DNA of 64,000 nt from Stegostoma tigrinum (Eukaryota): contig NC_081391.1 in the NCBI RefSeq assembly GCF_030684315.1, positions 14,113,342-14,177,341 of the forward strand, read 5' to 3'. The position numbers and the translations under genes were made by a program. Shown in pieces: positions 3,963-63,835 of the stretch (the first letter of the stretch is position 1; every line of letters starts with the position of its first letter). Under the pieces are notes generated by a model, which saw only the letters and a program-made list of their open reading frames with translations, made no database searches and was not told the origin of the DNA.

Positions 3963-4444
3963 ATGCCCCAAGGACGTTATGTTTTTTTGTCTAGTTGATG
4001 TTGGTTCTAAATTGGTCACTTATGTTGTGAATAGAGTAAAACAAACTCCTCATCACAAGATGGCCTCCCAGATTAGTCAGAACTATCACCAGGATTGTGA
4101 AGCTGCTGTCAACAAGCAGATTCATGTGGAGCTCACTGCCTCCTATCTCTATCAGTCTTTGGTGAGTGCTGTCCCTAGGGGGTTAAAACTTGATCTATGT
4201 AGTTGCAGTAAATGGTTTCTCTTGAATTTAAATAACTGGACACTCTCTCTGGTCGACTGAGTTTTGTGGTCCTTTCCTAAATATTAATTCAGGATAAGGG
4301 CAATGTTACTATACCAATGGGGTTTGATAATGATGTACTCTGAAGCTGGGTCCCAGTTGGCATTTGGAGATATGTGGAGGTTTAAGTGTCCCTGGAGATA
4401 TTTGCCAGTTTTGATTGGCAGTAGATGTCATTTCCTCTAAGATT

Positions 4445-4580
4445 ACACAGCAGGCTGAGCAGGATGGCTGATGTTTTGGGGCTTGACCCTTCTGAAGGTG
4501 TGTCTAGGCCCAAAACATCAGCTTTCCTGCTCCTTTGCTTGGCCTGATGTGTTCATTCAGCTCTACATCATTGTATCTCA
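4445..4580. mobile_element. Penelope-like hairpin remnant, intron 1 of copy 1
   Basis: gctgatgttttgggg...cccaaaacatcagc inverted pair. Confidence 0.5.
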
Positions 4581-4900
4581 AGGGGTAGAGTGTGTTTGGA
4601 AGTTGTGTTCAAGTAACCTTGGTGAGTGCTGCAGGGGACCTGGTAGATAATGGACCCTGAAAGGAGGTGGTGAATGCAGTCCCCATCAAGTGGGCTGCTC
4701 TGTCCTGGATGGTGTCTGCTTCTTGCATGTGGCAGCTCCACCTCCACAGACACATGGAGAAGCTTCATCACACTCAGCTTTTTTCTCTTAGAAAGAAGAT
4801 GCTTCATGACAGATGGATGAAGCCTGTGTAAACTCCATTTGGGAGGTGGGTACAGCTTTCATTGGTGAGCTAGTTGATGGGTGTTAATTCCTGACCAGGG
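4581..4900 (-). mobile_element. Old LINE ORF2 3' relic in intron 1 (also at about 32030-32350, 39000-39310, 49470-49790)
   Basis: The minus strand reads [12 protein letters not shown], resembling the 'LD.IQ.RAARLI' segment of non-LTR ORF2; shared by several copies and so ancestral to the array. Confidence 0.45.
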
Positions 4901-7200
4901 TCCCAATTCCCTTGGGGAACATGTGTGCCAATTCTAAAATCCTTCCTATTCTCTCCTGCCACAGCTTGTCCCTACCCCAGTTAAACAGCCAAGAAATTTT
5001 GTTTGACTGCTTCTGCTTCAAGAAAGTAACTTCCCACCAGGTTTCCTCAACAACAAAACCCTTAGCTCCTGTTTCAAATATCAGAAGAATAGCCCTTCAT
5101 AAACCTCAAGGCATTGGATTGTGAATATCTCGGTTCGGAAGTGAGTCACATATGGGTGGACAAACAACAGAACGCTGCCTGCTGGAATAAGCCAAACTCT
5201 GGTGTCCAGCTTTGTGTTAACTAGTGATGTTAGATCAGCCATTATGTGGAGGTACATGTCGCATTGGCCTGCTCCCTCTCTCCCTCTCCCCCCTGCGTGC
5301 TCTTGTGGTCATGTGACCCTTGTTTTCTCCCCCCCGACCCCTTCTGGATGTGAGTGCACTAATTTTAGTGTGCTATAAACTATAGCTGCAACAATCCAGA
5401 GGCTGTTACTGGGTAGGTTTTCCTTTGCACTATCTTGTTGTCGCTTTCTCTCATTCGCCTCTACTATATCTTGTAGTAATAAAATATACCGTACACTATC
5501 TCCCTGGTTTTGAGGCTGCAGAAACCTTGCTTCCTCCTGGTTATATTGTTACAGCAGTGTCTAACATGCATTTCCATGCCAGCCCCAAAGGAGCAATAGT
5601 GTTGCAGCTCCGCTACTCAACTATAGCCTGCACTCCAGCTCCTGGTGCTTGTTTCAGCTGTTTTTTAGGCTCTAAATTTGTCCAATTCAAATGAAGGTTA
5701 GTGAGTGAAAACATGGCTGGATGCAAGAAGAGCTATAATGCTGTGCCAGACAGCTTGAGCAATTCACTGTTTTAAGCCAAACTTTTGCCAGTTTCCAATA
5801 GGAAATTGGGATTGTTGTTAGTTCCCAGTTGAAGGATCTGCTGGCCAGCTGGATATCAGCGAATTCTCAACCATGTTCACATACCACGCAGTTACCAGCT
5901 AACTGAGCAGTTAGCTTGCTGCAGAAGGCTGAACTAGAATTTGGAGTCAGTGCTGTGTTCAATGGGCTTTAACATGTTTTCTCCCTTCCAGATGACCTAC
6001 TTTGACTGGGATGATGTGGCCCTCCCCCACTTCTCCCAGTTCTTCAAAGATCAGTCCCAGGTGAAGCAGGAACCTGCAGAGAAGCTGCTGAAATTCCAGA
6101 ATCAGCGTGGAGGCAGAGGCTGAGTCCTCCTCCAGGATGTGAAGGTTGGAGTTGTGTGGGAGGGTTGCAGCTGTGGGGAAGAGAATGGCAGCTCTTGTGG
6201 TGCTGCTTCCTGTTGGGATGTAAAAATCCTCTTTTGGCCTGGCTTCCCTGTTTGATTTCTTTTGAAGGCAGTTTCTAAACTAGCCCTATTGTCCACCATG
6301 TCTATGCTGCCCACAAACCTCAAACTACATTAACACAATTTCCTTGCACTTAGTCCCCAGCCTACTATCTTCTGGCATGAAGAAGTTGTTGAGATTAGGC
6401 TTCAATGTTGCTGGAGTAACTTCCTCCACTGACCCCTCAGGTCATGCATCCCATACCTCTCCCACCCTCCATTTATCCTCCAATCTCCTCAAACCTGTGC
6501 CATCTGGTCTTCATGTCTGCCACAGGGACTGTCTATTGTCCATGCTCCCTGATCTTCCACACTTCCATGAGATAACCATCCCAGTCTATCCAACCTCCCT
6601 CTCATCATTGTTTTTTTTGTCATTTTTCTTCCCCCATCTTGGGCCAACATCCTGATGACCCTCACCTGTACCCCCTCCAGTGTCACCCTGTCCTTCTGAT
6701 TGTGGTTCTGGTCACCACACTACATTCCTTCTTTGGTCTGGCCAATGCTGCCATGTTTATGGCAAGACTCATCCTTTTTACTGATCCCCAACTCCTGGAG
6801 ACCAGCATCATGTCAGCCCCTTCCCCACTCTGTCTACCTTTGCTGAACCTTGAGGGATGGCCTTGGGCATTTGTTGCTTGTCCCTTTTATTGTAAGCACA
6901 TTGCTGCTCCCTTCAATGAATTAAACAGCAGTGATGTCTGATCATCCTGCTCAGACATGTATGAAGCCACTGGCACAGGTGAGACATAGATGCCTGGCCT
7001 GCAAGGTCCAGATTGGTACTCTACCTCAAGAGCCCTTGAGACTAAGGTGTGAATGTCCTGATCTAAATGACAAATGGGCACTGGTGCAAACAGTTTAACT
7101 TTGTGTGAAATAAATCCCTGTCCCCACAATGACTTCATGCTTCAGATCAAGGATAAATGGAGCAAAGTGAAGTCACCTACAAGTCATCAATGTGGGTTTT

Positions 7201-7445
7201 AGGGGTGGCACAGTTGCTCAGTGGTTAGCACTGCTGCCTCAGTGCCAGGGACACAGGTTTAGCTCTGGCCTCTGGTGACTGGTGCTGACATGATCAGTTT
7301 CTTCCTACAGTCCAAATATGGGCAGGCTGGGTGAAGTAGCTGTGGGGGAAATGCAGGGCTATGGGATCAGGTAAATCTGAGATCTGCTTCAGAAGGTTGA
7401 TTGCAGACTCAATGGGCTGAATGGCCTGCTCCCATGCTGCAGGAA
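7201..7445 (+). mobile_element. tRNA-derived SINE (HE1/V-SINE-like) at the end of intron 2, copy 1
   Basis: Head ggtggcacagttgctcagtggttagcactgctgcctc (A-box-like) and CR1-like tail atgggctgaatggcctg. Confidence 0.75.
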
Positions 7446-8331
7446 GTCTGATTCTGAGGCTTAACTGTTCTTCTTTTCCCCCCTCCAGAAGCCAGAGAGG
7501 GATGAGTAGGGTAACAGCCTGCAGGCAAGGCAAGTTCTCCTGGATCTGGAGAAGAACGTGAACCAGAGTTTGTTGGATCTACACCAACTCGCCACAGCCC
7601 AGACTGACCCTCATGTAAGCTTCACCTCTTCATTCTCACCACTGCCATGCCTCCTCAACTTCATTGGTTGATCTTTGTGGAGTGGAAAGTCACAGACGTA
7701 ACTCTGTCCAGATGCTACATTGTCATCATAATTATGTTATTAAGGTACAATGTTACAATTGCTCAACACCAAACTGAAATAGGAATTTGGCTGACAGTCT
7801 AGTGGGAATGCTGATGTGATTTTTGGCTGCTGAATTGGGGATTGTTGCACTATACAATACAACTTGGAGCTCTTTAAGAAGGTGAGATGGATCAGCTGAA
7901 ATGTTGTCGTCACTGGCATCAATTCTCCACCTGGTAGCTAGATTTTCAGGGCTGTCTAGAGCAAGTTATGGCTAAGGGTTTTTCAGTGGGAATTATGAAG
8001 TTGTCTTGGACAGTGTTAATGCACTCAGTTGTCATCTTCCTCTGTTGCAGCTGTGACTTCCTGGAGACTCTCTATTTGGATGAGGAGGTGGAGATCATCA
8101 AGCAACTGGGTGACTACATCACCAACCTGAAGCACCTGGGAGCCCCTGAGAATGGGATGGGAGAGTACCTGTTTGACAGGCTCTCCCTGGAGGACAGCAG
8201 TTAGTGTGGCCTGGAGCACTGTCTACTTGGTCTGAATGCATGCCCCTCTTCACCTTGGACAACCTGTCTCCTTCCAAGGAGAAGGGACTTGGAGCAAAGA
8301 ATGTAATGGCTGTAGCAGCCGAATGGGAATG

Positions 8332-8337
8332 AATAAA
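8332..8337 (+). terminator. Polyadenylation signal, copy 1
   Basis: AATAAA about 128 nt after the stop, at the same position in all 7 complete copies, followed by GT-rich sequence. Confidence 0.75.
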
Positions 8338-11300
8338 ATGATGTGTTGATCTTGCTTATTGTCCATCATTCAGAGAACTGGGTGGTGTCTCTCGAGAGCT
8401 TGAAGCCTGTAATCTTTCTGTAGTTTGATTGGCTGGTCCAATTACAATTGGACATGAGACTAATTCACTGGGTCTTTTGACAATTTCCCCACCTCACTGG
8501 TCAGGGATAATGAGATGGAGTGCCTCCTTTGTGTGAAACAAGATATTCCCCTCCCACCAGAATTTGAGGTTGTGGTTTGATGCTGTTGGCCGAGAAAACG
8601 TTTTCGACAATGACTAGCATACTGTTGGATGTGGTGTGCACAACTGTAGTTAACAGAACGTGGAATTCCTTTTGCAAAAGCAACTTCCCACACCTTTTAT
8701 CAAAAGCTGGGACCAGGCCCCAACATTCTGCAAATTAGGGAAATTTTAACTTGTACATGGATAAGGCATGGAAAAATTAACGTTAAATACCTTTCCTCAT
8801 CAGCCTCCCTGAACAGTACCTTACACTCCAAGTGACAGAAATCACAATTTGACGACAAAACTAACTAATCTGCTGGCTGGATCAGCTCAGCCGAAGGAGG
8901 TGAGATATCGGGATGTGTTTCCTTGCCAGGGGCAGGAACCAGCTCATTGGGAGAGGATACCACTTCAGCTGGTCTGCTATTCATTGTGACTCGGGCCCTA
9001 ACATGACGTGACGAGTATATTCTATTCTCAGTTCTCAGCATTGTTGTCTCCTTTGTTTCTGTTACTTTTTTCTTTACACCCCCCTCCCCCACAACCATGT
9101 GTGCAGCCCAACAGCGTTGGGTGCTGGTAAAGGGTCAAACCAGGACCAGCAGTCAAGGTGGTGGGGGGTGGGGTGCCACGTGCCACTCTCTAAAACCCAT
9201 TCACCCTTCCCTTGTTACACGTCTCCACCAGTTGGCAATGCTCACCAGTTGATTCCTCCTTCAGTCTGAGTTACCACACGGTGACACTTCAGGGGATTTT
9301 ATAGCCACTTCAGCTCCAAAAGGAGTCAATGCCCATGGTTGCTGGGGGCAGTATGCGCAGAAGCAATCCCAATTTGTCCGAATGTGGCTCCCTTATTCCA
9401 CTTTCTTTCCCTATCCTTGCACTTACTCTACCGCTTCATCCAAGGAAAAATTTTCAAGCCTACCACCCCCGAGACCTGGGAAAGTGCAGCCCAAATTTTC
9501 ACAGCAGCCTCTATCAGACAGTCAGCTCACATTCACCTGAGCTGTATGGACGTATAATGCCTGCTCTTGATGCCACCCACAGTGGCAGTGTCTTGAGCAT
9601 AGCATAGCACAGCAGCGCTCCTGGTTAAATGTTGCCATTTGATTGGCTCTTGCTGCTAAAGCCTGCATTGAGCGCACTAAGCTGCTCCTTTGGTTCCTCT
9701 GAGCTTCCCCCACGGTGAGCGTTACTCCTGATGCAGGTTAATTGGGTGAAATCACATTGAAGGAGCAGTGTGACTCGGAGAGGAGACCTGGAGATGCTGA
9801 TTTTCCTGTCCCCCTGCTTCCCTTATCTTTCGAGGGGTCAGAGATCCTGGGTTAGGGAGGGGGCTATCAGAGACATCCTGAGGATTGTTCCAGGGAGTTT
9901 TGTAGCGAGTGCACACTGCAGCCTGCATGAGGGTGTGGGTCTTTAAGGCACTGAGCGTGTTTGTTCCTCCACAGAGAGCAGTTTAATTGCAGCAAATTGA
10001 AGTCTTGGCTGGAGAATCCCAATAGTGCAGCAAGAGGATATTAGGCCCATTAAATCTGCATCGACCCACTGAACCACATCCTGCTCAGACCCAACCCTTT
10101 TGCTTAACCCCACGGACAATCGAATTACCTTGGATGCGCATTGTCACTATGGGGCTATTTAGTATTACCAACCCACCTACCCTGCAAATCATTGGGCTGT
10201 GTGAAGAAACTCAAGCACCTGGAGGAAATCCACGCAGGCCATCAGCCAGGGGTAGAATCGAACCTGGGTCCCTGGCACTGAGGCGCCAAAACATTCTAAA
10301 GTACCAAAGGGAAGGAATGCACTGTGGCAAACTACGTCATGGGAATAGACTCTGCAGCCCAGCCCGAACTTGCAGACCAGGTTTTCATAAACTGTGTAGT
10401 GCCATTTGCCTACATTTGGCCCATCTTTCTCGAAACCGTTCCTTTCCATGTAAATCTCCAAATGTCACTTAAATGTTGTAATTCTATCCACCTCGACCAC
10501 TTCCTCTGGCAGCTCGTTCCATGCACGTACCACCCTCTGTGTGAAAATGTTGTCCCTCACGCCCCTTTTAAATCCTTCCCCCTCTCCCATCAAACCGGTG
10601 CCCTCTAGTTTTGGACCCCCCTACCCTGTCCCAGCATGCTTTTTATATACAGTCAATCTTGAGTGTGCCAATGGCAAGGCTACATTTAGTGCTCAGCAAC
10701 TGTTCCACTTCAGGAGGTGGTGATGAGCTGGTTATTACAGTCCACCTGGTGTCGGCGAGACCGGAATGATGCTGCTGCTGCTGCTGAGGAGGGGCTTCTG
10801 GGATTTTCGTTCACAAACAGGGATAGTGTTCCAAGTCAGGATGGTGACAGATTTACATGGAGCTGCTTGAGTGTCGTCGGAGCTGCCTCAAGCGAGAACA
10901 TTGTAAACTATTCCAGCACTACTCCCAACTTCAGCCTTATTGACGGTGGACAGGTTTTGGAAACTCAGGAGTTGAGTACTTCCTGACAGAATTCCCAGCA
11001 TCTGAATTCCCAGTTTCTGAGCTGTACCATCTACAGAACGCAATGTATACAGGACCAGAAATTCCTCACTTGGAAACCTGCTGGGGTTAATCGCTAGTTC
11101 TACTTCAAACAATGAAAAACGAAACTGGGAGACAGAAATGTTCAACGTGCGATACATTTCTAGCAGCAACTGAGACATAGAGGCCTGAGGCCTACTGTGT
11201 AGAAGAGGCACTCAGCACATTTAGCGTTTTGCTTTTCAAACTGGGCCTTCAAGGTCAAGGTCAGGGAGATCACATCAGATGCAGATTGGATCCACAAAGT

Positions 11301-11653
11301 ACATCAGTTGCCTGTTTTAGATGATCCAAAAGCACATTATTTCTGTTGCGGCACAGAAATAGGAAAATGTTCAGATCAACCAAATCGAGCCATTTTTCAA
11401 AGAGCTCCAACACCAACGTTCAAAAATTATGACGACTAATCCCTCAGAATAACAATCTGACAGAATTCTGCAAATCTGTGATGAGTGTGTCTTAACGCAC
11501 AACTTCAGATACAGACGTGAAGTTTTAGAGTATATTTTATTCTCATTTTCAGGGAGATGTCCTCCCAGAATTTGCACTTGTTCAGGAGGTCAAAGATCAT
11601 TTCAGCAATTTCATCATCAACCACTCATCAATTCTGATTGGTTTTTTGACCCG

Positions 11654-11775
11654 ATTCCCATCCTGCACTGATTGGATGTGGCAGCTGATCAATTGATTAA
11701 CAAGAGTGTTTGGCCATCACTGATGATCTCATTTCCTGCTTCATAAAATGAGTGTTGGCTCCTCGGGTATAAATA
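11654..11775 (+). promoter_or_regulatory. Core promoter, copy 2
   Basis: ATTGG at 11671-11675; second box changed to TTTGG; TATAAA at 11768-11773. Confidence 0.75.
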
Positions 11776-11861
11776 GAGTCCCAGGGCAGGGATGTTTATT
11801 GTTGTTCTTAACTTTGTTAATTTTGTGGTGCGGAAACTAAAGCAAGCTTTTCCTTTATATG

Positions 11862-14800
11862 ATGGCATCCCAGATCAGTCAGAACTATCACCAGGATTGT
11901 GAAGCTGCTGTCAACAAGCAGATTAATGTGGAGCTCACTGCCTCCTATCTCTATCAGTCTTTGGTGAGTGGTGTCTCTGTTGGGTGAAACATACTTCTGT
12001 TCTGTTGAAGTGAACTCTACTCCTTGGATGTAATTAAGTTGTCTATCTTATAGACTGAGTTTTGTGGCTCCTACCTCTTTCTCAATGCAGGATGAGTGTG
12101 ATGTTACTGTAACAATAGTTTGGTGTCCAATGTTACTCTAACTTGGGTCCCAGTTGGTTCTCAGTGAGATGTGGAGTGTTCTTGTAGTTACTTGCCTGTC
12201 CCATGATGGTGCTGTGACTGGTGGTAATTATAGCTTCCTGTGGCTGTTTGAAACTTGAGGGAACTAATTTAAAAATGAATTGGGACTAACCATTGTGGGA
12301 ATGGAAGCACCATCAGCTAGTCACTGCTCTTCTTTTCCTTCTTGTATCCTTGCTTGTATTTGAATTTTGTGGTGATCCCAACTTAACATCTCAAATAATC
12401 TTGAGAATCTTGATTTCCTATTGCAATCAGCTTAGAATAGGCTTGTTCTAGCCCTACAGAGCTGGGCTGAGAGGTGGCAAATGGAGTTTAATGCAGACAA
12501 GTGTGAGGTGATGCACTTTGGTAGGAGTAACCGGAAGGCAAAGCACGAGGCTAATGGTAAGATTCTTAGTAATGTAGATGAGCAGAGAGATCTCGGTGTC
12601 CACGTAAACAGGTCCTTGAAAGTTGCCATCCAGGTTGACAGGGTGGTTAAGAAGGCAGTGTTTTCTCTTTGATTAATAGAGGCATTGAGTTCTGGAACCA
12701 AGAGGTTATGGTGAAGCTGTACCAAACTCTGGTGTGGCTGCACTTGTAGTATTGTATACAGTTCTGGTCACTGCATTATAAGGATGTGGAAGCTTTGGCA
12801 AGAGTGCAGAGGAGGTTTACTAGGATGTTGCCTGGTATCGAGGGAAGCTCTTATGAGGGAAGACTGAGGGACTTGAGGCTGTCTTCATTGGTGAGAAGGT
12901 TGAGAGTTGACTTAATTGAAACATATAATATTCTGAGGGTTGGAAAGGGAAATCCTCTTTCTGCGGACGGTGAGCATGAGGGGGCATAGCTGTAAATTGA
13001 GGGATGATAGATATAGGACAGATGTCTGAGGTAGTTTCTTTACTCAGTAGTAAGGGAATGGAATGCTTTGCCTGTGACGGTAGTAGATTTGCCAACTTTA
13101 GGTACATTTAAGTCGTCATTGGACAAGCATATGGACGTACAGGGAATAGTCTAGGTTAGATGGGCTTGAGATCAGTATGACAAGTTGACACAACATCTAG
13201 GGCCTGTACTGTGCTGTTATGTTCTAGTTTCAGATTAAACTGGGTGAGGTTGTGACTGGTATCTGATCAAGCAGATCTCCATTTGAGATCTACTTTGCTT
13301 TTTTTCATACTCATGAGGTGGGTGTGGGCTGTCTGTATATGAAGTGTTGGAGCTTTTCCAAGGCACGGCACTGCCGTGGGGCTGAGAATGTGCGGAGGGT
13401 ACTGACCCAGTGAATATGCAAAAAATAGCTTATTCCTGTTGTATTTGGCCTGACTCTAACTAGCCCCTCTTTCCCCAGGTGGTTGGGTGCCTGTGCCCTT
13501 CCAAGGGGTAGAATGTGTTTAGAAGGTGTTAGAAGTAACCTTAGTGAGTGTTGCCGGGTGCTCTCTGGGCTTGTGCTTGTCAGCAGGAAGTCCTGTCATG
13601 ATGAGGATCAAGTCCCTGTCAGCCCCACTTTGGGAGGTGGCAACAGCTTTCATTGAGCCAGCAGTTCAGTTTTAATCGCTGACCCATGTTCCTAACACAA
13701 CTTGGAAGCATGTCCCAAGAGTAAAATCTCCACTATTCTACATCTTCTAACTGCCCATTTAAATGGGCAATGATAAATTGTGCTTGTGTTTGCATTTGAC
13801 AATTAAAGCAACTTTTTTCAGCAGGATTCCCAAGAATGTGTGTCTTAGTAGCTGCTTCCAATAGCAGACCTGGTAAACCTGAATACATTGAATTGTGAAC
13901 ATCCTGGTTTAGAAATCTACAGGACTTTGCCTGTTGGATTAAGTCAACAGTAGCATTTCCAGGTTACTGTTTTAATAAGTGATGTTGTCTAGAGAGTAGG
14001 TGATCTGCAGGTCACTGTCATATTTGTCATGTGATCAGTTTGTTTTGTCAATCATTGTTTCATGTGTAATGGTACAAGTTGCTAGCAGTCTCAGTACAGC
14101 TGTTTTAGTTGCAGCAGTAAACTGTATCTAGAACAATCCAAAGACTGTCCCGAGGCAGGCTTTCCTTGGCAGATTCTTGGTGCCCATGTCCTTCATTCAT
14201 CCCTTCCCCCTCACCCCAGCCACCCCACTACTGCAGCCCTTGTCAACCTAATACAGTGCATCCAATTGCATTGATCCTGACTAAGCAGAAAATGTGCTCC
14301 TTCCTAGCTGTTGGTTGCAGTGATGGGATCTGTTTTCTGGCCTTTGCCAAAGGAGCAATAGCGTGCCCTGCAGCTGTTCTATTGGTGCACATCCTGCATT
14401 CCAGCTTCTGGCATTTCTTGAAACCCTATTCAATCAGTAATTTATCCCATTTCTGGTGGAGGTTAATCAGTAAAAACATCAATTCACACTTGTTCTCACC
14501 CAATGCTGTGCCAGACCCACTGAGCAATTTGCCAGGAGTTTCAAACCAAAATAAAACACATGGTGTTTACAGCTTACCTGGAGGAAGCTGGGATTGTTTT
14601 GATTTTTCCAATTCAACAGGAACTGCTCAAAACTGGGTTCTGAATTGTTAATGCATCAGGTACTTAACAGCTTATTGTCAGTCTGATTTTTAGAATGCTC
14701 AAGTAGCCCTGGAGCTCTGAACTAAAATTGGCCCGTGACTTGTTAATGGGCTTTACCTTGATCTCCCTTCCAGATGTCCTACTTTGACCGGGATGATGTT

Positions 14801-17035: not shown

Positions 17036-17164
17036 TGTGGCCTGGAGTACTGTCTGCTTGGTCTGAATGCATTCCCCACTTCACCCTGGACAACCTGTCT
17101 CCTTCCAAGGAGAAGGGACTTTTGTAGCAAAGAATGTAATGGCTGTACCAGCTAAATGGAAATG

Positions 17165-17170
17165 AATAAA
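17165..17170 (+). terminator. Polyadenylation signal, copy 2
   Basis: AATAAA at the conserved position. Confidence 0.8.
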
Positions 17171-20280: not shown

Positions 20281-20366
20281 GAGTCCCACGGGAGGGATGT
20301 TTACTGTTGCTCTTAACTTTGTCATTTTTCTGGGGAGGAACATAAAGCAAGTGTTTCCTTTATGAG

Positions 20367-48424: not shown

Positions 48425-48546
48425 ATTCCCATCCTGCACTGATTGGACGTGGCAACTGATCAATTGATGAACAAGAGTGATTGGCCATCACTGATGATGT
48501 CATTTCCTGCTCAATAAAATGAGGACATTCAAGTGAGGTATAAATA
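48425..48546 (+). promoter_or_regulatory. Core promoter, copy 6
   Basis: Conserved block; TATAAA at 48539-48544. Confidence 0.72.
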
Positions 48547-48645
48547 GTGTCTCCACGCGACTGATGTTTTTGGTGTAGTTGGTTTTCTTTCTAAGTTTGT
48601 TCTTTGTTTGTGTGGAAAAAGGAAAGCCCCTTTTCTCCTCATAAA

Positions 48646-51600: not shown

Positions 51601-53403
51601 CTATACTGTGCCCCAACTGAAGGGGACGAGCATCATGTCAGCCACCTTCACCAGCCTGTCTACCTTCACTGAGCCTTGAGCTATCTATGGTCTGGACGTT
51701 GTTATCTTAGTTCCTTTTATTCTAAAAGCTTTGCTGGCCCTTCAACCAACTAAGTTGCAGTGATGTTTCTCCTCCTGCTCATGAGGAGGAGGACATGGCC
51801 TCGCAGTATTATTGTTGAACTGCCAGTCAGACCCAGGCCATGTTATCGGGTCACATGTTTGAATCCTGCCACAGCAGGTGGAATTTTGACTCCACTTAAA
51901 TAATCTGGAAATAAGAACTGAATGATGACCATGAATCCATTGATTGTCAGAAACTCATCAGGCTCAATATCCTTGTTTAGGAAGTAAATTTTATCTCGTC
52001 TGAACTACATGTGACTCCACACTTACAGCAATGTGGTTGACTCTTTATTGCCCTCTGCAGAATTAGGGATGGGCAATACATGTTGCCTGGTCAGCAAGCC
52101 CTCTCCAAATCCCACCAATAAAGGGGACATGGAATGCTGCCATCAGCACAGGTGGGACTTCACCCTGGGCCTTGTGTTCCAGTTACAGGGATATTACCAC
52201 GGTACCACAAAAGGCCTTGGGAATTAGGGTGTGACTGTCCCGCTTGGAATTCCATCAGAGGGACACCAGTACAAACCACTTTGTGCCAATTTAATCCTTC
52301 TCCCCACAATGACCTGTTCCTGAGCTTCATGCTTCAGATCCAGGATAAACAGCAAAGTGAAAGCAATTCAAATAACTGTTCCTCATCTGGGCTTCAGCGA
52401 CAGAATAGTTGCTCAGTGGTTCGCACTGCTGCCTCAGAGCCAGGGACACAGGTTGGATCTGGTCTCTGGTGGCTGTTTGGAACTTAGACACACACCCTCC
52501 ATGGGTTACCTCCCACAGTCCAATGATTGCCAACTTGAACCTGGATATGGGAAAGGCAGACCCACATGAAAAAGGTGAGTGGAATTCGGTGGGATACTAC
52601 TGAGGTAGTAGTTGGTCTCAATGGGCTGAATGGCCTGCTGCAGGAATGCTGTTGCTGAAGCTTAACTGTCCTTCTTTCCCTTCTCCAGAAGCCAGAGAGG
52701 GATGAGTGGAGTAACAGCCTGCAGGCAACGCAGGTTGCCCTGGATCTGGAGAAGAATGTGAACCAGAGTTTGCTGGATCTACACCAACTCGCCACAGCCC
52801 AGACTGACCCTCATGTAAGCTTCACCTCCTCCTCATTCTCATCACTGCGACACCCTCAGGGCAACACCTCATTGATTGGTCTTTGTGGTTTGGAAATTCA
52901 CTGCTGTAACACTTTGCCTGACTGACATTGGGCCTGAAGTGATCATGCTGAGAATCTGTTCAGCAGTTGTTAAAACGGGAATTTGGATCATTATCTGGAA
53001 GGAGCATTGACCTGATACTGGCCGCTGAATTCTTGTTTAGTATCATTGTCCATCACAATCCACCTCCACTCCATTTCACAAACAGTAAGATGGAGCAGCT
53101 GAAATCCTATTGTCCTCACTGGCACAAATTCTCCAGGTGCTGGCTTGAGTTTTCAGGGCTGTTGAGTGGGTATGGTGCCATGTTTTGCAGTGGGAATTCT
53201 GAAGTTGTCTTTAATAGTGATCACAATTTCTCTTTCTTCCATTGCAGCTGTGTGACTTCCTGGAGACTCACTATTTGGATGAGGAGGTGAGGATCATCAA
53301 GCAACTTGGGGACTACATCACCAACCTGAAGCGCCTGGGAGCCCCTGAGAATGGGATGGGAGAGTACCTGTTTGACAGGCTCTCCCTGGAGGATAGCAGT
53401 TAG
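48646..53403 (+). pseudogene. Ferritin copy 6, pseudogene; exons 48646-48747, 50836-50982, 52689-52814, 53248-53403
   Basis: Exon 2 has two in-frame TGA codons at 50953-50955 and 50959-50961 (CGT TGA GGC TGA GTC); the other exons are open. Confidence 0.93.
52395..52650 (+). mobile_element. HE1-like SINE, intron 2 of copy 6
   Basis: gttgctcagtggttcgcactgctgcctcagagccagggacacaggtt head. Confidence 0.7.
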
Positions 53404-53529
53404 TGTGCCCTGGAGTACTGTCTGTTTGGTCTGAATGCATTTCCCCACTTCACCCTGGACAATGTCTCCTTCCAGGGAGAAGGGACTTGGAGCAAAGAAT
53501 GTAATGGCTGTACCAGCTGAATGGGAATG

Positions 53530-53535
53530 AATAAA
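53530..53535 (+). terminator. Polyadenylation signal, copy 6
   Basis: AATAAA at the conserved position. Confidence 0.75.
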
Positions 53536-56500
53536 ATGATGTGTTGATCTTGCTTATTGTCCATCATTCAAAGCACTGTATAATTTTGGTAGTTATTCTG
53601 AGATGAAGCATTTAATTTTTCTACTGTTTGACTGGTTGATCAAATTACTAATTGGGCTAAACATTTCCTTGTTTCAACACTCAATCCAATCCATACTCTG
53701 TCAGACAAGGATACCAAGAGGAAGTCGCTCTGACCTATCAATCAATGATATTCCTCCAACCGGAACTTGAGGATATTGGGTTTGTTGGGTGCAACTTGCT
53801 CTTCACTGTTTGGTTTTTTCAAAAAAAACTACACTTCTGGATGCGATCCATACTATGGAAGGAAAGAAACTCCCTTTTTGGGAAAGGGAGTTCTCCTGCT
53901 CTGCCTAAGGGAAGAGGAGACGCCCAGTCTCACGATTATCTGACAGTCCTCTTTCCACATTCAGCTTGTCTGTCCAAGAGCTTTCGCTCACCCCTCCCCT
54001 ACTAAATGGTACTAGCACCCTCAATATTCACCTCCCAGATGTGGCTTCGGGTTATTGGGATGAGCTAAGGTTCAAACCAACCTTGGGACATGTACTATTG
54101 GTTGCGGGGTTTTTCCTTCCCCGCTCACCCACCTGACCCTCCTCTGATCCTGCGTTAGCAATTGGGCATGTTGGCCAGCTCATGCCTCCTTCGTCTGAGA
54201 TAAATATGCTGGTCCGACTGGTCGCTTCGATTCACTACCCACTGCAATCAGGGAGTCAATTCCCCCCCAGTGGGGGCATGTTTCCCATAAACAACCCAAA
54301 GTTGTCCGTCTGTGGCTTATTCATTCCTCTTTGCTCTGCCTGTTTACACGATTCTCTCCAACAAACAGCCACTTCAGAATCAGCACATTGCCTCATTGCC
54401 ACCTACAGCAGGTGACGAGTGGCCTGGAAGTAACACAGCAACGCTCATGGTTACATGTTGCTGTTTGATTGGCTCTTGCCGCTACAGCCAGCGTTGAGTG
54501 CACTCAGCTGCTCCCTATGTTCCTCTGAGCTTCCCCTGTGCTGCAGGTTGCCTTGACTCCGTGATGGTGAACGAGCAGTGATTTCTGTTCAACTTGGGAA
54601 TGGTGTGACTGAGGGAGGAAACCTGGAGCTGCATACCATCCTGTACGGCTGTTTACTTTATCGTTCGAGCTGTCACACATTCTGGGGATTACCTCTGACT
54701 TTTGCAGCTCCTGTGCAATGTAGCCTTTGTAGAGGGCCTGGCTCTAATGTGACTGAACATATCTGTTACATGACAGAAATCCTTTTAATTTGGAGCAATC
54801 TTAATTCTTGTCAATAAGTCCCTGTTGTCCAGGAAGCAGCCATTTGGCCAGTGCAGCGTCGACACTCTACACCCCATCCTGTTCAGACCCACTCCATTCC
54901 CTTAACACTGTTTCCCATGGCTAATTCAGCTAGCCCCTTGTCATTCAGCAATTTAGCGTTGCCGATCCACTTAACCTGAAAATTGTTGGACCGTGGGAGA
55001 AAACTGGAGAACCTGGGAGACACCGGGAGAAAATGCAAACTCCAGACAGACAGTTCCCGAAGGCTGTAATGCAACGTAGGACCTTGTCACTGGGAGGTAA
55101 CCGTGCTAACCACTGAGCCGCTATCACACCCTAATGTACCAAACAAAGAAATATGCTGTTGCAGACCATGAGAGTCACAGAGGCATACAGCATAGAAACA
55201 GGCCCTTCAGCCCAGCCTGTCCACGCCAACCACGTTTCCACTACTGAACAAGTCCCACTTGCCCACGTTTTGCCCATATTCCTCCAAACCAAATCTGTAA
55301 ATGGAAACATCTAAATGTCTCTTCAATGTTATAATTGTAAACACTTCTACCACTTCCTCTGGCAGCTCATGCCATACACACACACCATCGTCTCTGTGAA
55401 AATGTCCCTTTTAAATCTTTCCCCTCTCCCCTCTCCTCTCAAACCGATGCCCTCTAGTTTTGGACTCCCCTACCCTGTCCCAGCAAGCTTTTTTTCTACA
55501 GTCAATCTTGAGTGTGCCAATGGCAAGGCTACATTTTTTGCTCAGCAACTGTAACACTTCAGGAGGTGGTGATTAGCTGCTTATTACAGTCCACCTGGTG
55601 TAGGAGAGACCGGAATGATTTTGCTGCTGCTGCTGCTGAGGAGGGGCTTCTGGGATTTTCATTCGCAAACACTGATATTGTTCCAAGTCAGGATGGTGAC
55701 AGAGTTACATGGAGCTGCTTGACTGTTGCTGGGTCTACATGCAATCAGAAAATTGTACAGTGTTCCATCACACTTCCTAACTTCAGTCTTCTCGATAGTG
55801 GGCAGGCTTTGGGAAGTCAGGAGTTCAGCAATTCACAACAGAATTCCCAGCCTCGGGAAATTGAAATCAGCATTGAAACTTGTGGGTCAATCCAATAAGA
55901 TAGTGCTAGATTGCAATCTGCTTTTGAAGCTGGGAGGCCAGTTGCTCAGCTCGACAATATAGACAATGCAATGTAACCAGAACCAGAAACTCTCACTTGG
56001 AAACACGCTTCAATTGAGGGCTGGTTCTGTTTTGAAAAATTAAAAACTGCGCATGGACATAGAAGTGTTCAACATGCGATACATTTCCTGCAGCAATTCA
56101 GTAGAAAGGCCTGAGGCCTACCGTGTACCTGAAGCACTCAGCACATTTAGCATTTTGGTTTTCAAACCGTGCTTCCTCAGACCCAAGTCCAAACAGATCA
56201 CAGTAGATACAGAATGAATCCACAAAGTAGATTGTTTTTCTGTATTAAATGGTCCAAAAGCATATGAATTCTGTTGACGCACAGCAATGGGAAAATTTTA
56301 CTGTTAACAAAATCTAGTCATTTTTCAATGGGCTACAAATCTGTGATTCAAAAGGTACAAAGACTAATCCCTCAGAGTCACAAACCGACAGAATTCAGCA
56401 AATCTGTGATGAGCGTGTCTTAACACATAACCTCAGATACAAAGGTAAAGGTTCAGAGTCTATTTTGTTCTCATTTTCAGGGAGATGTACTTCCACAATT

Positions 56501-56580
56501 TGTATTTCTGCTGGAAGCCAAAGATCAGTCAGCAATTCCATCATCGACCAGTTGTCAATTCTGATCGGTTTCTGGATCCA

Positions 56581-56702
56581 ATCCCCATCCTGCACTGATT
56601 GGACGTGGCAGCTGATCAATTGATTAACAAGAGTGATTGGCCATCACTGATGATGCCATTTCCTGCTTCAGAAAATGAGAGTCTGCTCCTGGAGTATAAG
56701 TA
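56581..56702 (+). promoter_or_regulatory. Core promoter, copy 7
   Basis: Conserved block of copy-1 type; TATAAG at 56695-56700. Confidence 0.75.
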
Positions 56703-56799
56703 ATGCCCCAAGGAGGTTATGTTTTTTTGTATAGTTGATCTTGGTTCTAAATTGGTCACTTTTGTAGTGAAGAGAGTAAAACAAACTCCTCATCACAAG

Positions 56800-59700
56800 A
56801 TGGCCTCCCAGATTAGTCAGAATTACCACCAGGATTGTGAAGCTGCTGTCAACAAGCAGATTCATGTGGAGCTCACTGCCTCCTATCTCTATCAGTCTTT
56901 GGTGAGTGTTGCCTCTCAGGGGTTTAACATTTAAACTATCATGTCAAAGTGACTGGTTTCCCTTGTTTCTAACTAACCTGATATTCTTGTACACTGACTG
57001 TAATTGTTCTTAACTGAACTGTAATTCAGGATGAATGTGATGTTTCCATAGCAATGGGCTATGGGACTGATGCCCCACTTGGCCTGCAGCGACACATTGA
57101 GGTGAAGTGTTCTTGGTGTTCTCAGACTCCCTTAGACTGTTGTGACTGGCAGTAACTGTTACTCCCTCATTAGGGTTGTTGAAAGTGAAGGTTTGTTAGG
57201 CCTGTTCCTGGGGTTGCATGATCTAGTGTATTGGTGCTACTGGAATGTCTGGAGATTTTTCACTCTATAACAGTGAAGAAATGGAGATTCTACTCTCATG
57301 CTGGCCCTATTTGAAACAGGCCTCTTTTGTCAGTTGGTGCTGTGCCTGTGACCACCTGAAAAATGGTCTCATTTGTAGGTGAGAGAGATAATAGGAAGTG
57401 CAGATGCAGGAGAATCTGTTTATAACAAGGTGTCGAGCGAGAATAACAGCAGGCCAAGTGGCACCTTAGGAGCAGGAAAGCTCCTGTTTCTGGACTAAAG
57501 GGTCTAGGCCCGAAACATTAGCTTTCCTGCACTGAAGATGCCACTTGGCTGGCTGTGTTGTTCCAGCTCTAAACCTTGTTATCTTGGACTTATGCATGCA
57601 AGGTGTTATTCTTTTTCAGTGAGGGGAACACATCATGCCTTGCGATTGCCTCACGTTTGTTTTTTATTCTCCAGTAGGATTGACTGTAGAACAGTACAGG
57701 CCCTTCAGCCTTCGCTGTTGTGCTGACCTGTCATACCGATCTGAAACCAATCTAAGCTACACTATTCCATATGTGTCCATGTGCTCATCTAATGATGACT
57801 TAAATATACCTCAAGTTGGCGAATCTACAACCGTTGCAGGCAAAGCATTCCATTCCCTTCCTATTGAGTAAAGAAACTACCTTTTGACATCTGTCCGATA
57901 ACTTCCAACCCCCAGTTTAAAGGTAGGTCCCCTCATGCTTGCCGTCACCATCCTAGGAAGAAGCCTTTCCCTATCTAACCCTCTGAATATTTTGTCTCAA
58001 TTAAGTCTCCTCTCAAACTTCATCTCTCTCTGTTGAAAACAGCCTCAAGCCCCTCTGCCTTTCCTTGTAAGATGTTCCCTCCATACCAGGCAACATCCCA
58101 GTACATCTCCTCTGCACCCTTTCCAAAGCTTCCACATCCTCCTTATAATGCAGTGACCAGAACTGTACGCAATACTCAGTGTGGCCACACCAGAGTTTTG
58201 TACAGCTGCAGCATAACCTCTTGGTTCCAGAAAACAATCCCTCTATTAATAAAAGCCAAAACACTATGCCTTAACAGCCCTGTCAACCTGGGTGGCAACT
58301 TTCAAGGACCTGTGTACATGGACAACGAGATCTCTTTGCTCATCGACACCACCAAGTTTCTTACCATTCGCCCAGTACTTTGCCTTCTGGTTACTCCAAC
58401 AAAGTGCATCACCTCACACTTGGCTGCATTAAACTCCATTTGCCACCTCTCAGCCCAGCTCTGCAGCTTATCTATGTCTCTCTGCAACCTACAGCATCCT
58501 TCGTCATTATCCGCAACTCCACCATAGTGTCGTCTGCAAATTTACTAACCCATCCTTCTACGCCCTCATCCAGGTCATTTATAAAAATGACAAACAGCAG
58601 GAGACCCAGCACCGACCCTTGCGGTACACGACTAATAACTCGTCTCCAGGATGAACACTTCGCATCAACTACCACCCTCTGTCTTCTTTGAGCAAGCCAA
58701 TTTTCAATCCAAACTGCTATATCTCCCACAATTCCATTCCACTACACTTTGTACAGTAGCCTATTGTGGGGAATGTTATCGAACGCCTTGCTGAAATCCA
58801 TATACACCACATCAACCGGTTTACTCTCATCTACTTGTTTGGTCTCCTTCTCAAAGATTGAGGGTCTGAGTGGCCTAATCCTGTTTGTTCTGCTAACAGT
58901 TTTTTGTTTCTTTGGTTCTTTAAAAATGAACCAGTGTCTTCAGGATTGCCTCTAATTATTTTGAACTGAGTAGAAGCCGTCACTTTGTCACAAGCTCCAA
59001 CTTCATGTTCAGCATGGAACCAAGTTTAAATCTACATCTGCATGACTGACTGACCAACACTCGCTTCTCTCCCGTCCCAATATACCGGAGGTTTAACACC
59101 TTTATTGAATAGTCAGCCTGATCGGGAAGGCTCGCTTCTTCTCACCACTGAGACTGAACTGTGGCCAGTGATGTGTTTAATGGGCTTTTGTCTGTTTTCT
59201 TTTCCAGATGTCCTACTTTGACCAGGACGATGTTGCCCTCCCCCATTTCTCCCGGTTCTTCAAACATCAGTCCCAGGAGAAGCAGGAACATGCAGAGAAG
59301 CTGCTGAAATTCCAGAATCAGCGTGGAGGCCGGGTCCTCCTCCAGGATGTGAAGGTTAGAGTTGGCAATATATGGCTGCTCTTGTCATGTGGCTTCAAGT
59401 CATCAGTGGCAGGATGTTTGCCTCCTCTCAGGAGAGTGACGAGTTCTTTCAGTTTGGTTTCTAAGTTTCATCTCAAAGTCATGCAGTGTACGGGAAAAGC
59501 CACTTGCCCCCCCATAAACAGAACTACACTCATCTGACTTGCTTGCACTTGGTCCACAGATGACTATACCCTGGCATGAAGTACATGTCCAGATACTGCT
59601 GGAGTTGCTATCTCCACTGCCTTCTCTTCCCCTCCCCACCCAGACCACGGTTCAACTCGTATCTTGATCAGCCTCCTTTTTGGGAATGTGGTTTCCTCCA

Positions 59701-61118
59701 ATTGCCCCTCTATAACCTGCTTATTCCTCAAACCTGTGCTCTCTGGTCTGTCTTCCTCATGGCCCACATTCTCCCCATCTCCTGTCCCAACTTCCCTCTG
59801 CTAACTGCCTCAGCCTGTTTGTCCTCCAGCCAATCCAAGACCTCAATGGATTTTCCACCTGAGGGACCTTCCTGTCCTTCTGATAGTGGTCCTGTTCACA
59901 ACACCATTGCTTCTTTGACCTGGCCAAAATTTGAGTGGGAGAAGAAATGGCTGCCCTTGGGGTGTGGCTTCCATCCATCAGTAACAGGATGATGACATCC
60001 TGAAGGCAGGTGCAGGAAGTGAAGTGCTTCTGTCTTTCACCCATCATTCGGTCTACATCTTGTGCAAGAACTATACTGTCTAAATTCTGCATGATAATCT
60101 CAAACACGCTCATTTGTTCCTGGCTTCGGTGAAATCAAACGTACACTCGGGTCGAAAGTTCAAGGTCTCCTGCTAATAACGTGGCTGGATTCTTTTTTTT
60201 AGTTTTAAAGCAGTTCTGTTTGTACCAAGTGCAATCAGACAAGACCAGTGTGTCTGTGCGCTCCTACCATTAGACATGACGACAGTGATTGCTTTCCCTT
60301 TACATGAAGGGTCAAGGGTCAATTGTTGAACAAGGGTGCTGCATGTCATGGGGAACAGTGAGGTTTGTCCTGGAGCTTACCTGTCCTTCTTTCCATCCTC
60401 AGAAGCCAGAGAGGGATGAGTGGAGTAACAGCCTGCAGGCAATGCAGGTTGCCCTGGATCTGGAGAAGAATGTGAACCAGAGTTTGCTGGATCTACACCG
60501 ACTCACCACAGCCCAGACTGACCCTCATGTAAGCTTCACCTCCTCCTCATTCTCATCACTGCTACACCCTCAGGGCAACACTTCATTGATTGGTCTTTGT
60601 GGTTTGGAAATTCACTGCTGTAACACTGTCTGGCTGACATTGGACCTGAAGTGATCATGCTGAGGATCTGTGTTCACAGTTGTTAAAATGGGAATTTGGA
60701 TCAGTATCTGGAAGGAGTGTTGAACTGATTCTGGCCACTGAATTCTCGTTTAGTATCATTGTCCGTCACAATCCACCTCCATTCCATTTCACAAACAGCA
60801 AGATGGAGCAGCTGAAATCCTATTGTCCTCACTGCCAAATATTCTCCAGGTGCTGGCTTGATTTTTCAGGGCTGTTGAGAGTGGGTATGGTGAAATGTTT
60901 TGCAGTGGGAATTCTGAAGTTGTCTTTAATAGTGATCACAATTTCTCATTCTGCTGCTGCAGCTGTGTGACTTCCTGGAGACCCACTATTTGGATGAGGA
61001 GGTGGAGATCATCAAGCAACTTGGGGACGACATCACCAACCTGAAGTGCCTGGGAGCCCCTGAGAATGGGATGGGAGAGTACCTGTTTGACAGGCTCTCC
61101 CTGGAGGACAGCAGTTAG
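56800..61118 (+). CDS. Ferritin subunit, copy 7; exons 56800-56901, 59208-59354, 60403-60528, 60963-61118
   Basis: Open spliced frame of 176 aa with GT-AG introns; R43Q, R63Q, R157C; AATAAA at 61246-61251. Confidence 0.88.
57385..57590. mobile_element. Penelope-like hairpin remnant, intron 1 of copy 7
   Basis: ataacaagg...caggaaagc / agggtctaggcccgaaac...gctttcctg...ccttgttat. Confidence 0.5.
57687..58856 (-). mobile_element. CR1 LINE, 5'-truncated and decayed, in intron 1 of copy 7
   Basis: [18 protein letters not shown] and EYCVQFWS fragments in shifted frames. Confidence 0.92.
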
Positions 61119-61245
61119 TGTGCCCTGGAGTACTGTCTGCTTGGTCTGAATGCATTCCCCACTTCACCCTGGACAATCTTTCCCCTTCCAGGGGGAAGGA
61201 ATTTTGTAGCAAATGATGTAATGGCTGTACCAGCTGAATGGAATG

Positions 61246-61251
61246 AATAAA
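61246..61251 (+). terminator. Polyadenylation signal, copy 7
   Basis: AATAAA at the conserved position. Confidence 0.8.
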
Positions 61252-62702
61252 ATGATGTATTGATCTTGCTTATTGTCCCTCATTCAGATTACTAAATATT
61301 TTGGGAGATGTCACTGAGCTTGAAGCCTGTTTATCGTTCTCTAATTTGGCTGATCCAATTAGTAAATGGACTCAGCAAAACTTCTAGGTCTTACCCCATC
61401 CCCCGAATGTTGGAAAGTAGCAAGATGGAGTTCCTTGTTGTGGTCCCAAAGAAATTCAAGATATTCTCTTCAAAGAGGTTAAGTTGGGTGTTTGTGAATT
61501 GTGGGGTGGCAATTCTTCTGGAGGACAACTGGCACATTTCTGGCTACGGGCCATTCGGATCATTAAAATCTGCTTTCACACTATGAACAGCATCATGTTC
61601 AGATCTTCCCCCCGCCCCCATATTTCCCATGGCTAATTTACCCAGACTGTATGACCCCTTGTCACTATTGGCAATTTAGCACGGCCAGTACACCTACTCC
61701 ACATGTTGTTTGACTGTGGTGGGAGACTGGAACAGGTGAAGGAAATCCACACAGACATGAGGCAAATGTACAAACTCTGCTCAGACAGTTTTCCCCCAGG
61801 CTAGAATCAACCTTGGGCTCCTGGTGTGGTGAGGTAACAGTGCTAACCGCTGAGGCCCCTTCACCCCCTAAAGTACCAAACAAAGGAGGAGGAGGCTGTT
61901 GCAAAGTCAGAGCCATCCATCATGGAGATAGACTCTTAAGAACAACATGTCCTTGCTGACCACGTTTCCACAAATTGTGTCGTGCCATTTGCCTACTTTT
62001 TGTCCAAATCCCTCTTAAACAGTTAAATCCCTATAAATCGTTCCATCCCACATACATGTCCAAAGTCTTGAAATTGTACGCAAACCTCTCGTTTCTGTTG
62101 GCAGCTTCTTCCAGACACGCACCGCCCTCTTTGTGAAAACGTTCCCCCTCAGTCCCTTTTAAATGTCCCTTTTAAATCTTGCCCCTCTTCCCTCAAACCG
62201 ATGACCTCTAGTTTTGGACTCCTCCTACCCTGTCCCAGCATGCTTTTTTATATACAGTCAATCTCGAGTGTGCCAATGGCAAGGCTACATTTAGTGCTCA
62301 GCAACTGTTACACTTCAGGAGGTGGTGATGAGCTGCTTATTACAGTCCACCTGGTGTGGGAGAGACCGGAATGATGCTGCTGCTGCTGCTGCAGAGGGGC
62401 TTCTGGGATTTTCAATCTCAAACAGGGATCGTGTTCCTGGCGATAGATTTACTTCAAGCTGCTTGAGTGAGGTAGGGGCTGCACTGAGCCAGAAAATTCT
62501 GAACTGTTCCATAAATATTCATTAACACATCCTGACCCCACTGTTATACGTGGTGGACAGGCTTTGGAAAGTCAAAAGTTGAATACTTTGGAACAGAGTT
62601 CCCAGCCTGTGACCTACCAGTTTCTGAGCTGTATGTTCAGCAGAATGCAATGTAAACAGCACCAGACACTCTCTGCTCAGAAACAGACTGGAGTTAAGCG
62701 CT

Positions 62703-62935
62703 AACACGGTGGAGCTGGATGAACACAGCAGGCCAGGAAGCATCAGAGGATCAGGAAAGCTGATGATTCAGATAGGGACCCTTCTTCAGTAAAGGAAGAT
62801 TCAGCACATTTCTGAAGAAGCTTCCTGACCCGAAACATCAGCTTTCCTGCTCCTCTGATGCTGCCTGGCCTGCTGTGTGCATCCAGTTCCACATTGTGTT
62901 ATCTCTGACTCCAGCAACAGCAGTTCTTACTATCC
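62703..62935. mobile_element. Duplicate of the Penelope-like hairpin at 36603-36835
   Basis: Near-identical sequence and flanks. Confidence 0.6.
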
Positions 62936-63518
62936 GTGAGGAAGTTCAGCGCTGGTCATCCTCGAAGTGATTAAAAACTGAACACGGAGATAAAAGTGCT
63001 GAACGTGCAGTATAATTCTCACAGCTATCTCCTGGTCCATTTACGTATAGAGCCTGAGGCCTGTTGTGTGTCTGAGACACTCAGCACCTTTCGCATTTTG
63101 ATTTTTCAATCTGGCCTACTCAGATCCACAGTCGACGAGATCTCGGCAGATTCAGAATGGATCCACGATGTACATCAGTTGTCTGTACTAAATGGTCCGT
63201 AAGCACATGGATTCTGTTGCTGTAGCGCAATAGGAAAATGTTTACTGTTGACAAAATCTGGCCATTTCTCACTGGGCTCCAACACTGTTGTTCAAAAGGT
63301 ATAAAGACTAATCCCTCAGAGTAACAAACTGACAGAATTCAGCAAATCTGTGATGAGTGTTTATTAAGAAATAGCCTCAGATACAAAAGCGAAGTTTTAG
63401 AGTGTATTTTATTCTCATTTTCAGGGAGATGTACTTCCAGAATTTGCACTTGTGCAGGAGGTCAATCAGCAATTCCATCATCGACCAGTTGTCAATTCTG
63501 ATCGGTTTCTGGATCCAA

Positions 63519-63638
63519 TTCCCATCCTGCACTGATTGGACGTGGCAGCTGATCAATTGATTAACAAGAGTGATTGGCCATCACTGATGATGTCATTTCC
63601 TGCTTCATAAAATGATGGTCTGCATTGGGGTATAAATA
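63519..63638 (+). promoter_or_regulatory. Core promoter, copy 8
   Basis: Conserved block; TATAAA at 63631-63636. Confidence 0.75.
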
Positions 63639-63733
63639 ATGTCCTAAGAGAGTGATGTTTTAGGTGTAGTTGGTTTTCTTTCCAAGTTTGTTGTTTTGTT
63701 GTGCTGGGTTAGGAAAGCTGTTTGTGTCACAAG

Positions 63734-63835
63734 ATGGCCTCCCAAATCAGTCAGAACTATCACCAGGATTGTGAAGCTGCTGTCAACAAGCAGATTAATG
63801 TGGAGCTCACTGCCTCCTATCTCTATCAGTCTTTG
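63734..63835 (+). CDS. Ferritin copy 8, exon 1 only (gene runs past the window end)
   Basis: [34 protein letters not shown] followed by donor gtgagt. Confidence 0.9.

Follow-up and report, generated by a model that had tools for sequence, protein, structure and literature searches.

An amplified class of shark ferritin genes with a predicted ferroxidase-null site in Stegostoma tigrinum

A 64,000-nucleotide (nt) stretch of the Stegostoma tigrinum genome (NCBI RefSeq assembly GCF_030684315.1, contig NC_081391.1; G000:C50:14,113,342-14,177,341 in our numbering), hereafter the window, lies within a long array of ferritin genes in which lysine stands at position 62. We call this K62 class array A, and its surroundings, C50:12.96-14.457 Mb, were analysed whole. 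A second ferritin array, B, in which the catalytic site is intact, lies on the same contig. The reading that we favor, with a probability of roughly 0.6, is that array A encodes a ferroxidase-null partner of the array B product in mixed iron-storage cages, made in bulk without iron feedback, probably as an ovary or oocyte stockpile.

The K62 array and its copies

Gene models were made by a six-frame motif scan followed by exon building, and residues are numbered as in the human heavy (H) chain, FTH1. Seven whole four-exon ferritin genes and exon 1 of an eighth, all on the plus strand, occupy window positions 4060-63835; the exons are 102, 147, 126 and 156 nt long, the introns are GT-AG, and the copies are 94-98% identical to one another. 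Frames are open in copies 2, 3, 4, 5 and 7 and broken in copies 1 and 6. A preliminary description of the window had claimed ferritin copies with K62 and E141 here, and rebuilding the genes returned both residues in 7/7 whole copies; the exon models equally bear out its statement that E27, Y34 and E107 are kept in all (7/7), and H65 in all but one pseudogene, copy 1, where P replaces it. The numbering was verified with the named protein P0011, one residue off copy 2, which is colinear and gap-free with frog middle-chain (M) ferritin over residues 1-176, and was also matched to the ferroxidase ligand lists in Table 1 of PMC10114856. The features are:

4060..8204, plus strand: copy 1, broken; exons 4060-4161, 5992-6144, 7489-7614, 8051-8204; exons 2 and 3 contain stops and a frameshift occurs at exon 4; K62, P65, E141
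11862..17035, plus strand: copy 2, open frame of 176 amino acids; exons 11862-11963, 14774-14920, 16304-16429, 16880-17035; K62 codon 14846-14848, E141 codon 16916-16918, AATAAA 17165-17170
20367..25527, plus strand: copy 3, open; exons 20367-20468, 23256-23402, 24782-24907, 25372-25527
31245..35035, plus strand: copy 4, open, promoter displaced by a fragment of a long interspersed nuclear element (LINE); exons 31245-31346, 33110-33256, 34316-34441, 34880-35035
37990..42400, plus strand: copy 5, open, 3/3 splice joints present in contigs of sequencing run X10; exons 37990-38091, 40370-40516, 41710-41835, 42245-42400
48646..53403, plus strand: copy 6, broken by stops in exon 2; exons 48646-48747, 50836-50982, 52689-52814, 53248-53403
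56800..61118, plus strand: copy 7, open; exons 56800-56901, 59208-59354, 60403-60528, 60963-61118
63734..63835, plus strand: copy 8, exon 1, the rest of the gene lying past the window end; intact, unit 143 of the array
3951..63638, plus strand: eight TATA motifs, one per copy, starting at 3951, 11764, 20269, 29869, 37891, 48535, 56691 and 63627
30005..31231, minus strand: LINE-type reverse-transcriptase fragment in the 5' leader of copy 4 (RVT_1, E 2.7e-24)

The eight TATA motifs, against 0.42 expected from shuffling, lie about 95-110 nt 5' of the ATG, copy 4 excepted. Copy 4 had been taken for a complete open gene; its frame is indeed open, but between its TATA box (29869) and its ATG (31245) sits a 1.3-kb LINE fragment carrying a (TAGAACA)4 tail. 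Other reverse-transcriptase fragments are found in the window at 1908-2579, 28374-29093 and 44996-45496. The named proteins nearest the window copies come from Stegostoma, Chiloscyllium, Hemiscyllium and Rhincodon and are labelled 'heavy' or 'middle subunit-like', in keeping with the earlier surmises that the DNA was from a shark and that automated pipelines would use such names.

The estimate of at least eight genes, five of them open, holds for the window and falls far short as a measure of the array, which comprises 170 units on a single strand over C50:12,987,143-14,403,990 (1.42 Mb), with a median spacing of 8.4 kb. Four exons are present in 164/170 units, and 112/170 are intact, that is, with no indel, no stop, an ATG and canonical splice sites; the intact copies make up 96 distinct coding sequences and 82 distinct proteins. 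K62 is found in 168 of the 169 exon-2 copies, the residue being deleted in the remaining one, and E141 in all 167 exon-4 copies. An A-specific motif has 159 matches genome-wide, every one inside the array A stretch, so that class A is confined to this stretch as far as the motif detects it. A first, 15-nt search pattern was dropped as too unspecific (2,928 matches). A long open reading frame scan of the flanks returned repeats alone among the matches listed, and a degenerate (CA)n/(TG)n repeat of some 10 kb (C50:12,974,000-12,984,000; L002, L003) lies just left of the array.

Could an array of this size be an artefact of assembly? A 126-kb block is duplicated head to tail at 99.78% identity (C50:13,662,674-13,915,830); it may be a very recent duplication or a haplotype artefact, and a false duplication would cover about 15 units. 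The unplaced contig C216 may likewise duplicate part of array B. But the roughly 1.5 Mb across array A contains no N, the other long repeats are 97.5-99.5% alike, the divergence of most blocks is 0.5-2.5%, the diversity among intact and window copies is as given above, and many class members are annotated in the genomes of other sharks. We regard an artefactual array as extremely improbable.

The active site, array B and the iron-responsive element

The class A product matches the Pfam ferritin family (PF00210, E 6.7e-36). Its predicted model is a ferritin bundle with helices at 11-39, 46-72, 93-120, 124-154 and 161-172 (predicted local distance difference test score, pLDDT, 87), and compared with frog M it gives a Foldseek template modelling (TM) score of 0.94 at 70% identity. 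Frog and fish M ferritins are the closest solved structures, and they share the length, exon plan and M/light-chain (L)-type chromosome of array A; frog M, however, is catalytic, with E58/Q137/D140 (frog numbering) where array A has K58/E137/I140. The ferroxidase ligands of human H ferritin are E27, E62, H65, E107 and Q141, to which the frog M residues just given correspond (PMC10114856, Table 1). Array A departs from this set at two positions, with K62 and E141. The class A product is well predicted to lack ferroxidase activity, because E62K alone is said to abolish activity in FTHL17 (review PMC7760355, in its account of that protein); the E62K/H65G mutant is described as null in PMC6929972. 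The preliminary description, too, had called the product non-catalytic.

E27, E64, E107, H118, C130, D131, E134 and I144 are invariant in 112/112 intact copies, H65 is present in 108/112, E140 in 111/112 and E61 in 107/112, and R172/L173 stand at the four-fold channel. Might the centre have been rewired, with E27, H65 and E107, joined by E61, E140 and the new E141, oxidising iron slowly or binding another metal such as zinc? Mammalian L-types have lost E27 and H65, and the retention of these residues in the array, together with E107 in 55/55 and E27 in 54/55 class A proteins across sharks, is what this idea would lead one to expect. Yet in the mammalian L chain K62 salt-bridges E107, and E107 may persist in sharks through the same pairing; H65 is R, C or Y in 5/23 class A members from outside the carpet sharks, which suggests a relaxed need; and activity is reported to disappear once the bridging E62 is lost. 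A rewired centre is, in our judgment, unlikely.

Array B lies on the same contig (C50:19.95-21.56 Mb) and on C216, in mixed orientation (L049-L056, L168-L180, L185-L200). With exon 3 of P0009 as query, 150/150 scored matches (460 candidates) fell in C50:19.95-21.55 Mb or C216, and a B-specific 22-mer has 231 matches genome-wide, a count that C216 may inflate by duplicating array B copies and whose positions are listed for the first 100; the size of array B is roughly 200 genes or more. In 410 kb sampled, the aligned copies carry E27 in 42/44, E62 in 49/50, H65 in 50/50, E107 in 51/52 and Q141 in 53/53, with M144 and L173 fixed. The three-fold channel residues H118, C130, D131 and E134 are intact in both the A and the B subunits.

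Two other ferritin genes are single-copy: an M-type gene at C50:21.61 Mb, and an FTH1-type gene on C20 at 18.05 Mb, assigned through 90% exon-3 identity to an H-grouping Callorhinchus protein. These are exactly the two of ten loci scanned at which Rfam reports an iron-responsive element (IRE). Rfam finds no IRE in the 64-kb window, and none lies between the TATA motifs and the ATGs of the window copies. A loop-and-stem scan that recovered 2/2 positive controls found the element in 0/167 A leaders and 0/20 B leaders.

Expression, distribution and origin of the class

Run X10 was taken as RNA because its cover is confined to exons and it shows splice joints; its kind and tissue are not on record. 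It covers the exons of copy 5, unique intron bins being covered sparsely or not at all, and its contigs are joined at GT..AG over all three introns of copy 5 and also over the introns of a B gene. Whether any copy is expressed at all had been left as a question by the preliminary description; array A is transcribed, and A and B are both spliced in one sample, though run X10 does not resolve copies, level or cells. Summed contig depths were not taken as expression level or copy number. Runs X1, X4 and X9 (a small share, with other organism codes) cover only repeats or 40 nt of a B gene, and the DNA-like runs X11, X12 and X14 are deeper in exon bins than in intron bins, which fits many copies and is not a count. 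Exon-skipping joints (1 to 3, 1 to 4, 2 to 4) occur in X10 contigs of both classes (window 37990-42400, L053), and may be real skipping or assembly noise.

The shark gonad is surrounded by the epigonal organ. A preprint on the Greenland shark (10.1101/2024.09.09.611499) describes, in its passage on ferritin, a two-class cluster with ovary-specific expression, which agrees with the guess, made from the window alone, of an oocyte or ovary role. One may ask whether the product serves instead in immune or blood-forming tissue such as the epigonal organ, made in bulk for iron withholding or recycling. An 'ovary' sample may contain epigonal tissue, and the unrecorded tissue of X10 leaves room for such a role; but the preprint terms expression ovary-specific, and somatic IRE-bearing genes exist separately. 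We consider this role improbable, somewhat more so than a rewired centre.

The same preprint reports ferritin expansions in the Greenland and great white sharks, 155 'FTL' and 179 'FTH1' copies that form clusters on a single scaffold, are ancient and for the most part have their full length. As here, there are two classes with more than 100 copies each on one chromosome (A, 170 units; B, 231 motif matches; both on C50), and Carcharodon A- and B-type proteins lie on one 33-Mb contig; the Stegostoma arrays very probably represent the same expansion. Amplification, which had seemed possibly new, is therefore already in print in outline. The Greenland shark account uses human gene names and gives, in the relevant passage, no active-site residues, IRE status or phylogeny. 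In Stegostoma, unlike what the names 'FTL' and 'FTH1' imply, neither array falls with FTH1 or with mammalian FTL, and the one FTH1-type gene lies on a different contig. The words 'ferritin' and 'FTH' do not occur in a second Greenland shark preprint, the consulted part of PMC11719527 has nothing on sharks beyond a 1952 report, and a literature search covering few subscription journals turned up 10.1101/2024.09.09.611499 alone on ferritin expansion in sharks, and no account of ferritins with K62 as a class, of their loss of the IRE or of their separate origin. The residues, the IRE status and the tree given here characterise the two classes.

How general is K62? In a survey of named full-length class A proteins from 10 shark genera, partial and fused models excluded, K62 is present in 55/55, as it is in the partial and fused class A models listed with the tree set. 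E141 and I144 are found in 32/32 proteins from four carpet-shark genera, whereas Q141 is found in 23/23 from six others. K62 and E141 had been put forward as a joint hallmark; the pair holds in the array and fails across sharks, where, judged by these proteins, the ancestral change is K62 alone and E141 was added in carpet sharks. E62 is present in 32/32 chosen comparators, a set that left out the known K62 exceptions (a Heptranchias B-type protein, lizard and marsupial proteins, and L chains), and K62 is one of just three sites at which A is invariant and differs from at least 90% of the others. Shark-type ferritins P0034, P0323 and P0326 are filed under bacterial names (Aeromonas, Salmonella) and are probably host contamination.

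In a tree of 44 proteins, with six trait columns removed, class A forms one clade (100/99), and its sister group consists of B together with proteins of chimaera and sawfish (96/86); the L-type rows, long-branched and including neither canonical human FTL nor frog L, fall weakly among bony-vertebrate M-types. An earlier tree of 56 rows, with all columns and no L rows, gave the same result for A and B. Forcing A together with the two mammalian L rows was rejected by the approximately unbiased (AU) test (p-AU 0.0156), and class A as a light-chain orthologue was dropped. Because class A is sister to array B and not to the mammalian light chain, the K62 of sharks is probably convergent with that of mammalian L.

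The 'light-chain-like' nature originally claimed does not survive as orthology: by prediction array A works like an L chain, and by residues, IRE and tree it is not of the FTL family. It shares with mammalian FTL K62, E141, a hydrophobic residue at 144, R172/L173 at the four-fold channel, and a predicted role as non-catalytic partner. Mammalian FTL, unlike array A, has Y27, G65, an IRE and one copy, where A keeps E27 and H65, lacks the IRE, has about 167 copies and forms a separate clade (AU p=0.016). A seal 'ferritin light chain-like' protein, P0288, also has K62 and E141, with Y27 and G65.

RUVBL2 (C50:18.55 Mb) and a BAX-like gene (C50:26.43 Mb) share the contig of the arrays but are both megabases from them, and UBE2M and CHMP2A are also on C50; in human these four are 19q13 genes near FTL, and GYS1 is another FTL neighbour. 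A linkage of glycogen synthase to the arrays fails, as glycogen synthases are on C20 and C33 and none on C50. Both arrays most likely derive from an M/L-side locus; teleost M and tetrapod L are regarded as orthologous in the part of PMC4117605 that treats them.

Proposed function and its alternatives

We envisage that A and B would have arisen by duplication in cartilaginous fishes at an M/L-type locus, giving an H/L-like division of labor separate from the mammalian one. Fe(II) would enter through the three-fold channels, intact in both subunits, and be oxidised at array B subunits; mineralisation would follow in a mixed 24-mer in which the array A subunits take the structural or nucleating part, as L chains do in mammals. 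Hundreds of short, TATA-driven, IRE-less genes would yield bulk apoferritin regardless of the iron level of the cell, serving a large-yolked embryo as a maternal store. As the sequence shows no evident signal peptide, the protein would be made in the cell that stores it.

A number of observations weigh against this picture. Activity, assembly and iron loading rest on prediction. Part of the L-type acidic nucleation patch, as defined in PMC4117605, appears to be missing in A: E64 is present in 112/112 intact copies, but position 57 is D in 64/112 and H in 48/112, and Q or R occupies position 60. The closest K62 precedent in nature, FTHL17, has been characterised as an unstable, regulatory protein and not as an iron store. 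Array B carries M144, which may affect catalysis. X10 is one run of unrecorded tissue and cannot place A and B within shared cells; the evidence for ovary comes from a different shark, and equating its 'FTL' and 'FTH1' with A and B is our own step. Two partial Chiloscyllium class A models have E62 (the first exon-2 repeat of P0006, and P0032). Within the array the invariance of K62 is unremarkable, as 90/176 sites are invariant among the 82 distinct proteins; A-to-G at first codon positions is seen in just 8/40 sites; and the synonymous share of private changes is no higher in intact copies than in broken ones (24:61 vs 33:97, p=0.64).

Several of these points would suit a germ-cell role like that of FTHL17, in which an iron-poor cage or oligomer serves the oocyte, independently of B, in a structural, protein-reserve or nuclear regulatory capacity. 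FTHL17 is intronless. It has E62K with the other centre residues kept, as A does, is expressed in the germ line (the shark side of this likeness coming from the preprint only) and forms a small multigene cluster in mouse; array A, unlike it, has four exons, about 167 copies, a co-amplified partner with the catalytic site and, in carpet sharks, E141/I144. The FTHL17 section of PMC7760355 places the gene on the X chromosome, and its protein is described as germ-cell-expressed, inactive and partly nuclear. The missing IRE, the seemingly incomplete nucleation patch and the recurrence of K62 in lizard proteins and in marsupial proteins labelled FTHL17 all sit well with such a role. It accounts poorly for the retention of entry-channel and transit residues (D131 and E134 in 112/112, E140 in 111, E61 in 107), and for the splicing of the co-amplified, intact-site array B in the same run. 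We hold it the likeliest of the alternatives, though still a minority prospect. The marsupial proteins labelled FTHL17 group with tetrapod M-type and not with A in the tree, which includes no eutherian FTHL17.

One would think that so large an array might also be mostly a neutral by-product of unequal crossing-over, with K62 fixed once and carried along. The 58/170 units that fail the intactness test, the many recent block duplications and the unselected look of private changes fit this. But pairwise pN/pS among intact copies is 0.36, transcripts are spliced, and the class forms a single clade whose frames are open in 10 genera and whose members in distant sharks share 78-95% identity with P0011; a mostly neutral array is very unlikely. 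Because pN/pS is 0.36, yet private changes are the same in intact and broken copies, we infer that single copies are loosely held and turn over freely, about a third being broken, while the class-defining K62 is retained.

To return to the mixed-cage proposal, a broader and more tentative idea, which we put at somewhat under even odds, is that sharks independently invented a ferritin of catalytic and inert subunits, both IRE-free, and amplified it to about 400 genes as the main means of loading their very large eggs with iron, with the K62 switch-off occurring separately in sharks, in mammalian L and in FTHL17-type proteins. If this is true, the two-subunit egg ferritin array would be a protein-coding counterpart of oocyte gene amplification. 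The two shark classes identified here, an intact-site and a K62 subunit, both IRE-free and both on the M/L side of the family, allow a natural test of why inert subunits have evolved again and again among ferritins, with E62K alone in most sharks and E62K, Q141E and I144 in carpet sharks. They make maternal iron supply in sharks directly testable, and the database labels 'heavy', 'middle' and 'oocyte isoform' mask a class predicted to differ in catalysis.

K62 with E27, mostly H65, and Q141 kept is also seen in lizards (P0117, P0200, P0305), in the marsupial P0150 cluster and in P0068, the Heptranchias B-type protein; the recurrence of this pattern among M-side ferritins of other vertebrates suggests that switch-off has happened more than once at this one residue. 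Two divergent single ferritin genes lie between array B and the M-type gene (C50:21,570,738-21,574,993, minus strand, and 21,591,671-21,601,906, plus strand; L158, L057, L058), and no IRE was found in the divergent-ferritin loci scanned, L057 and L159. One of the two genes has K61, E62 and Q65, and the other K64 with E62, H65 and Q141. Finally, a B-type copy on C11 (45.82 Mb; L184:5465-5950) is intronless and broken, that is, a processed pseudogene, which suggests that B has at some time been transcribed in the germ line.

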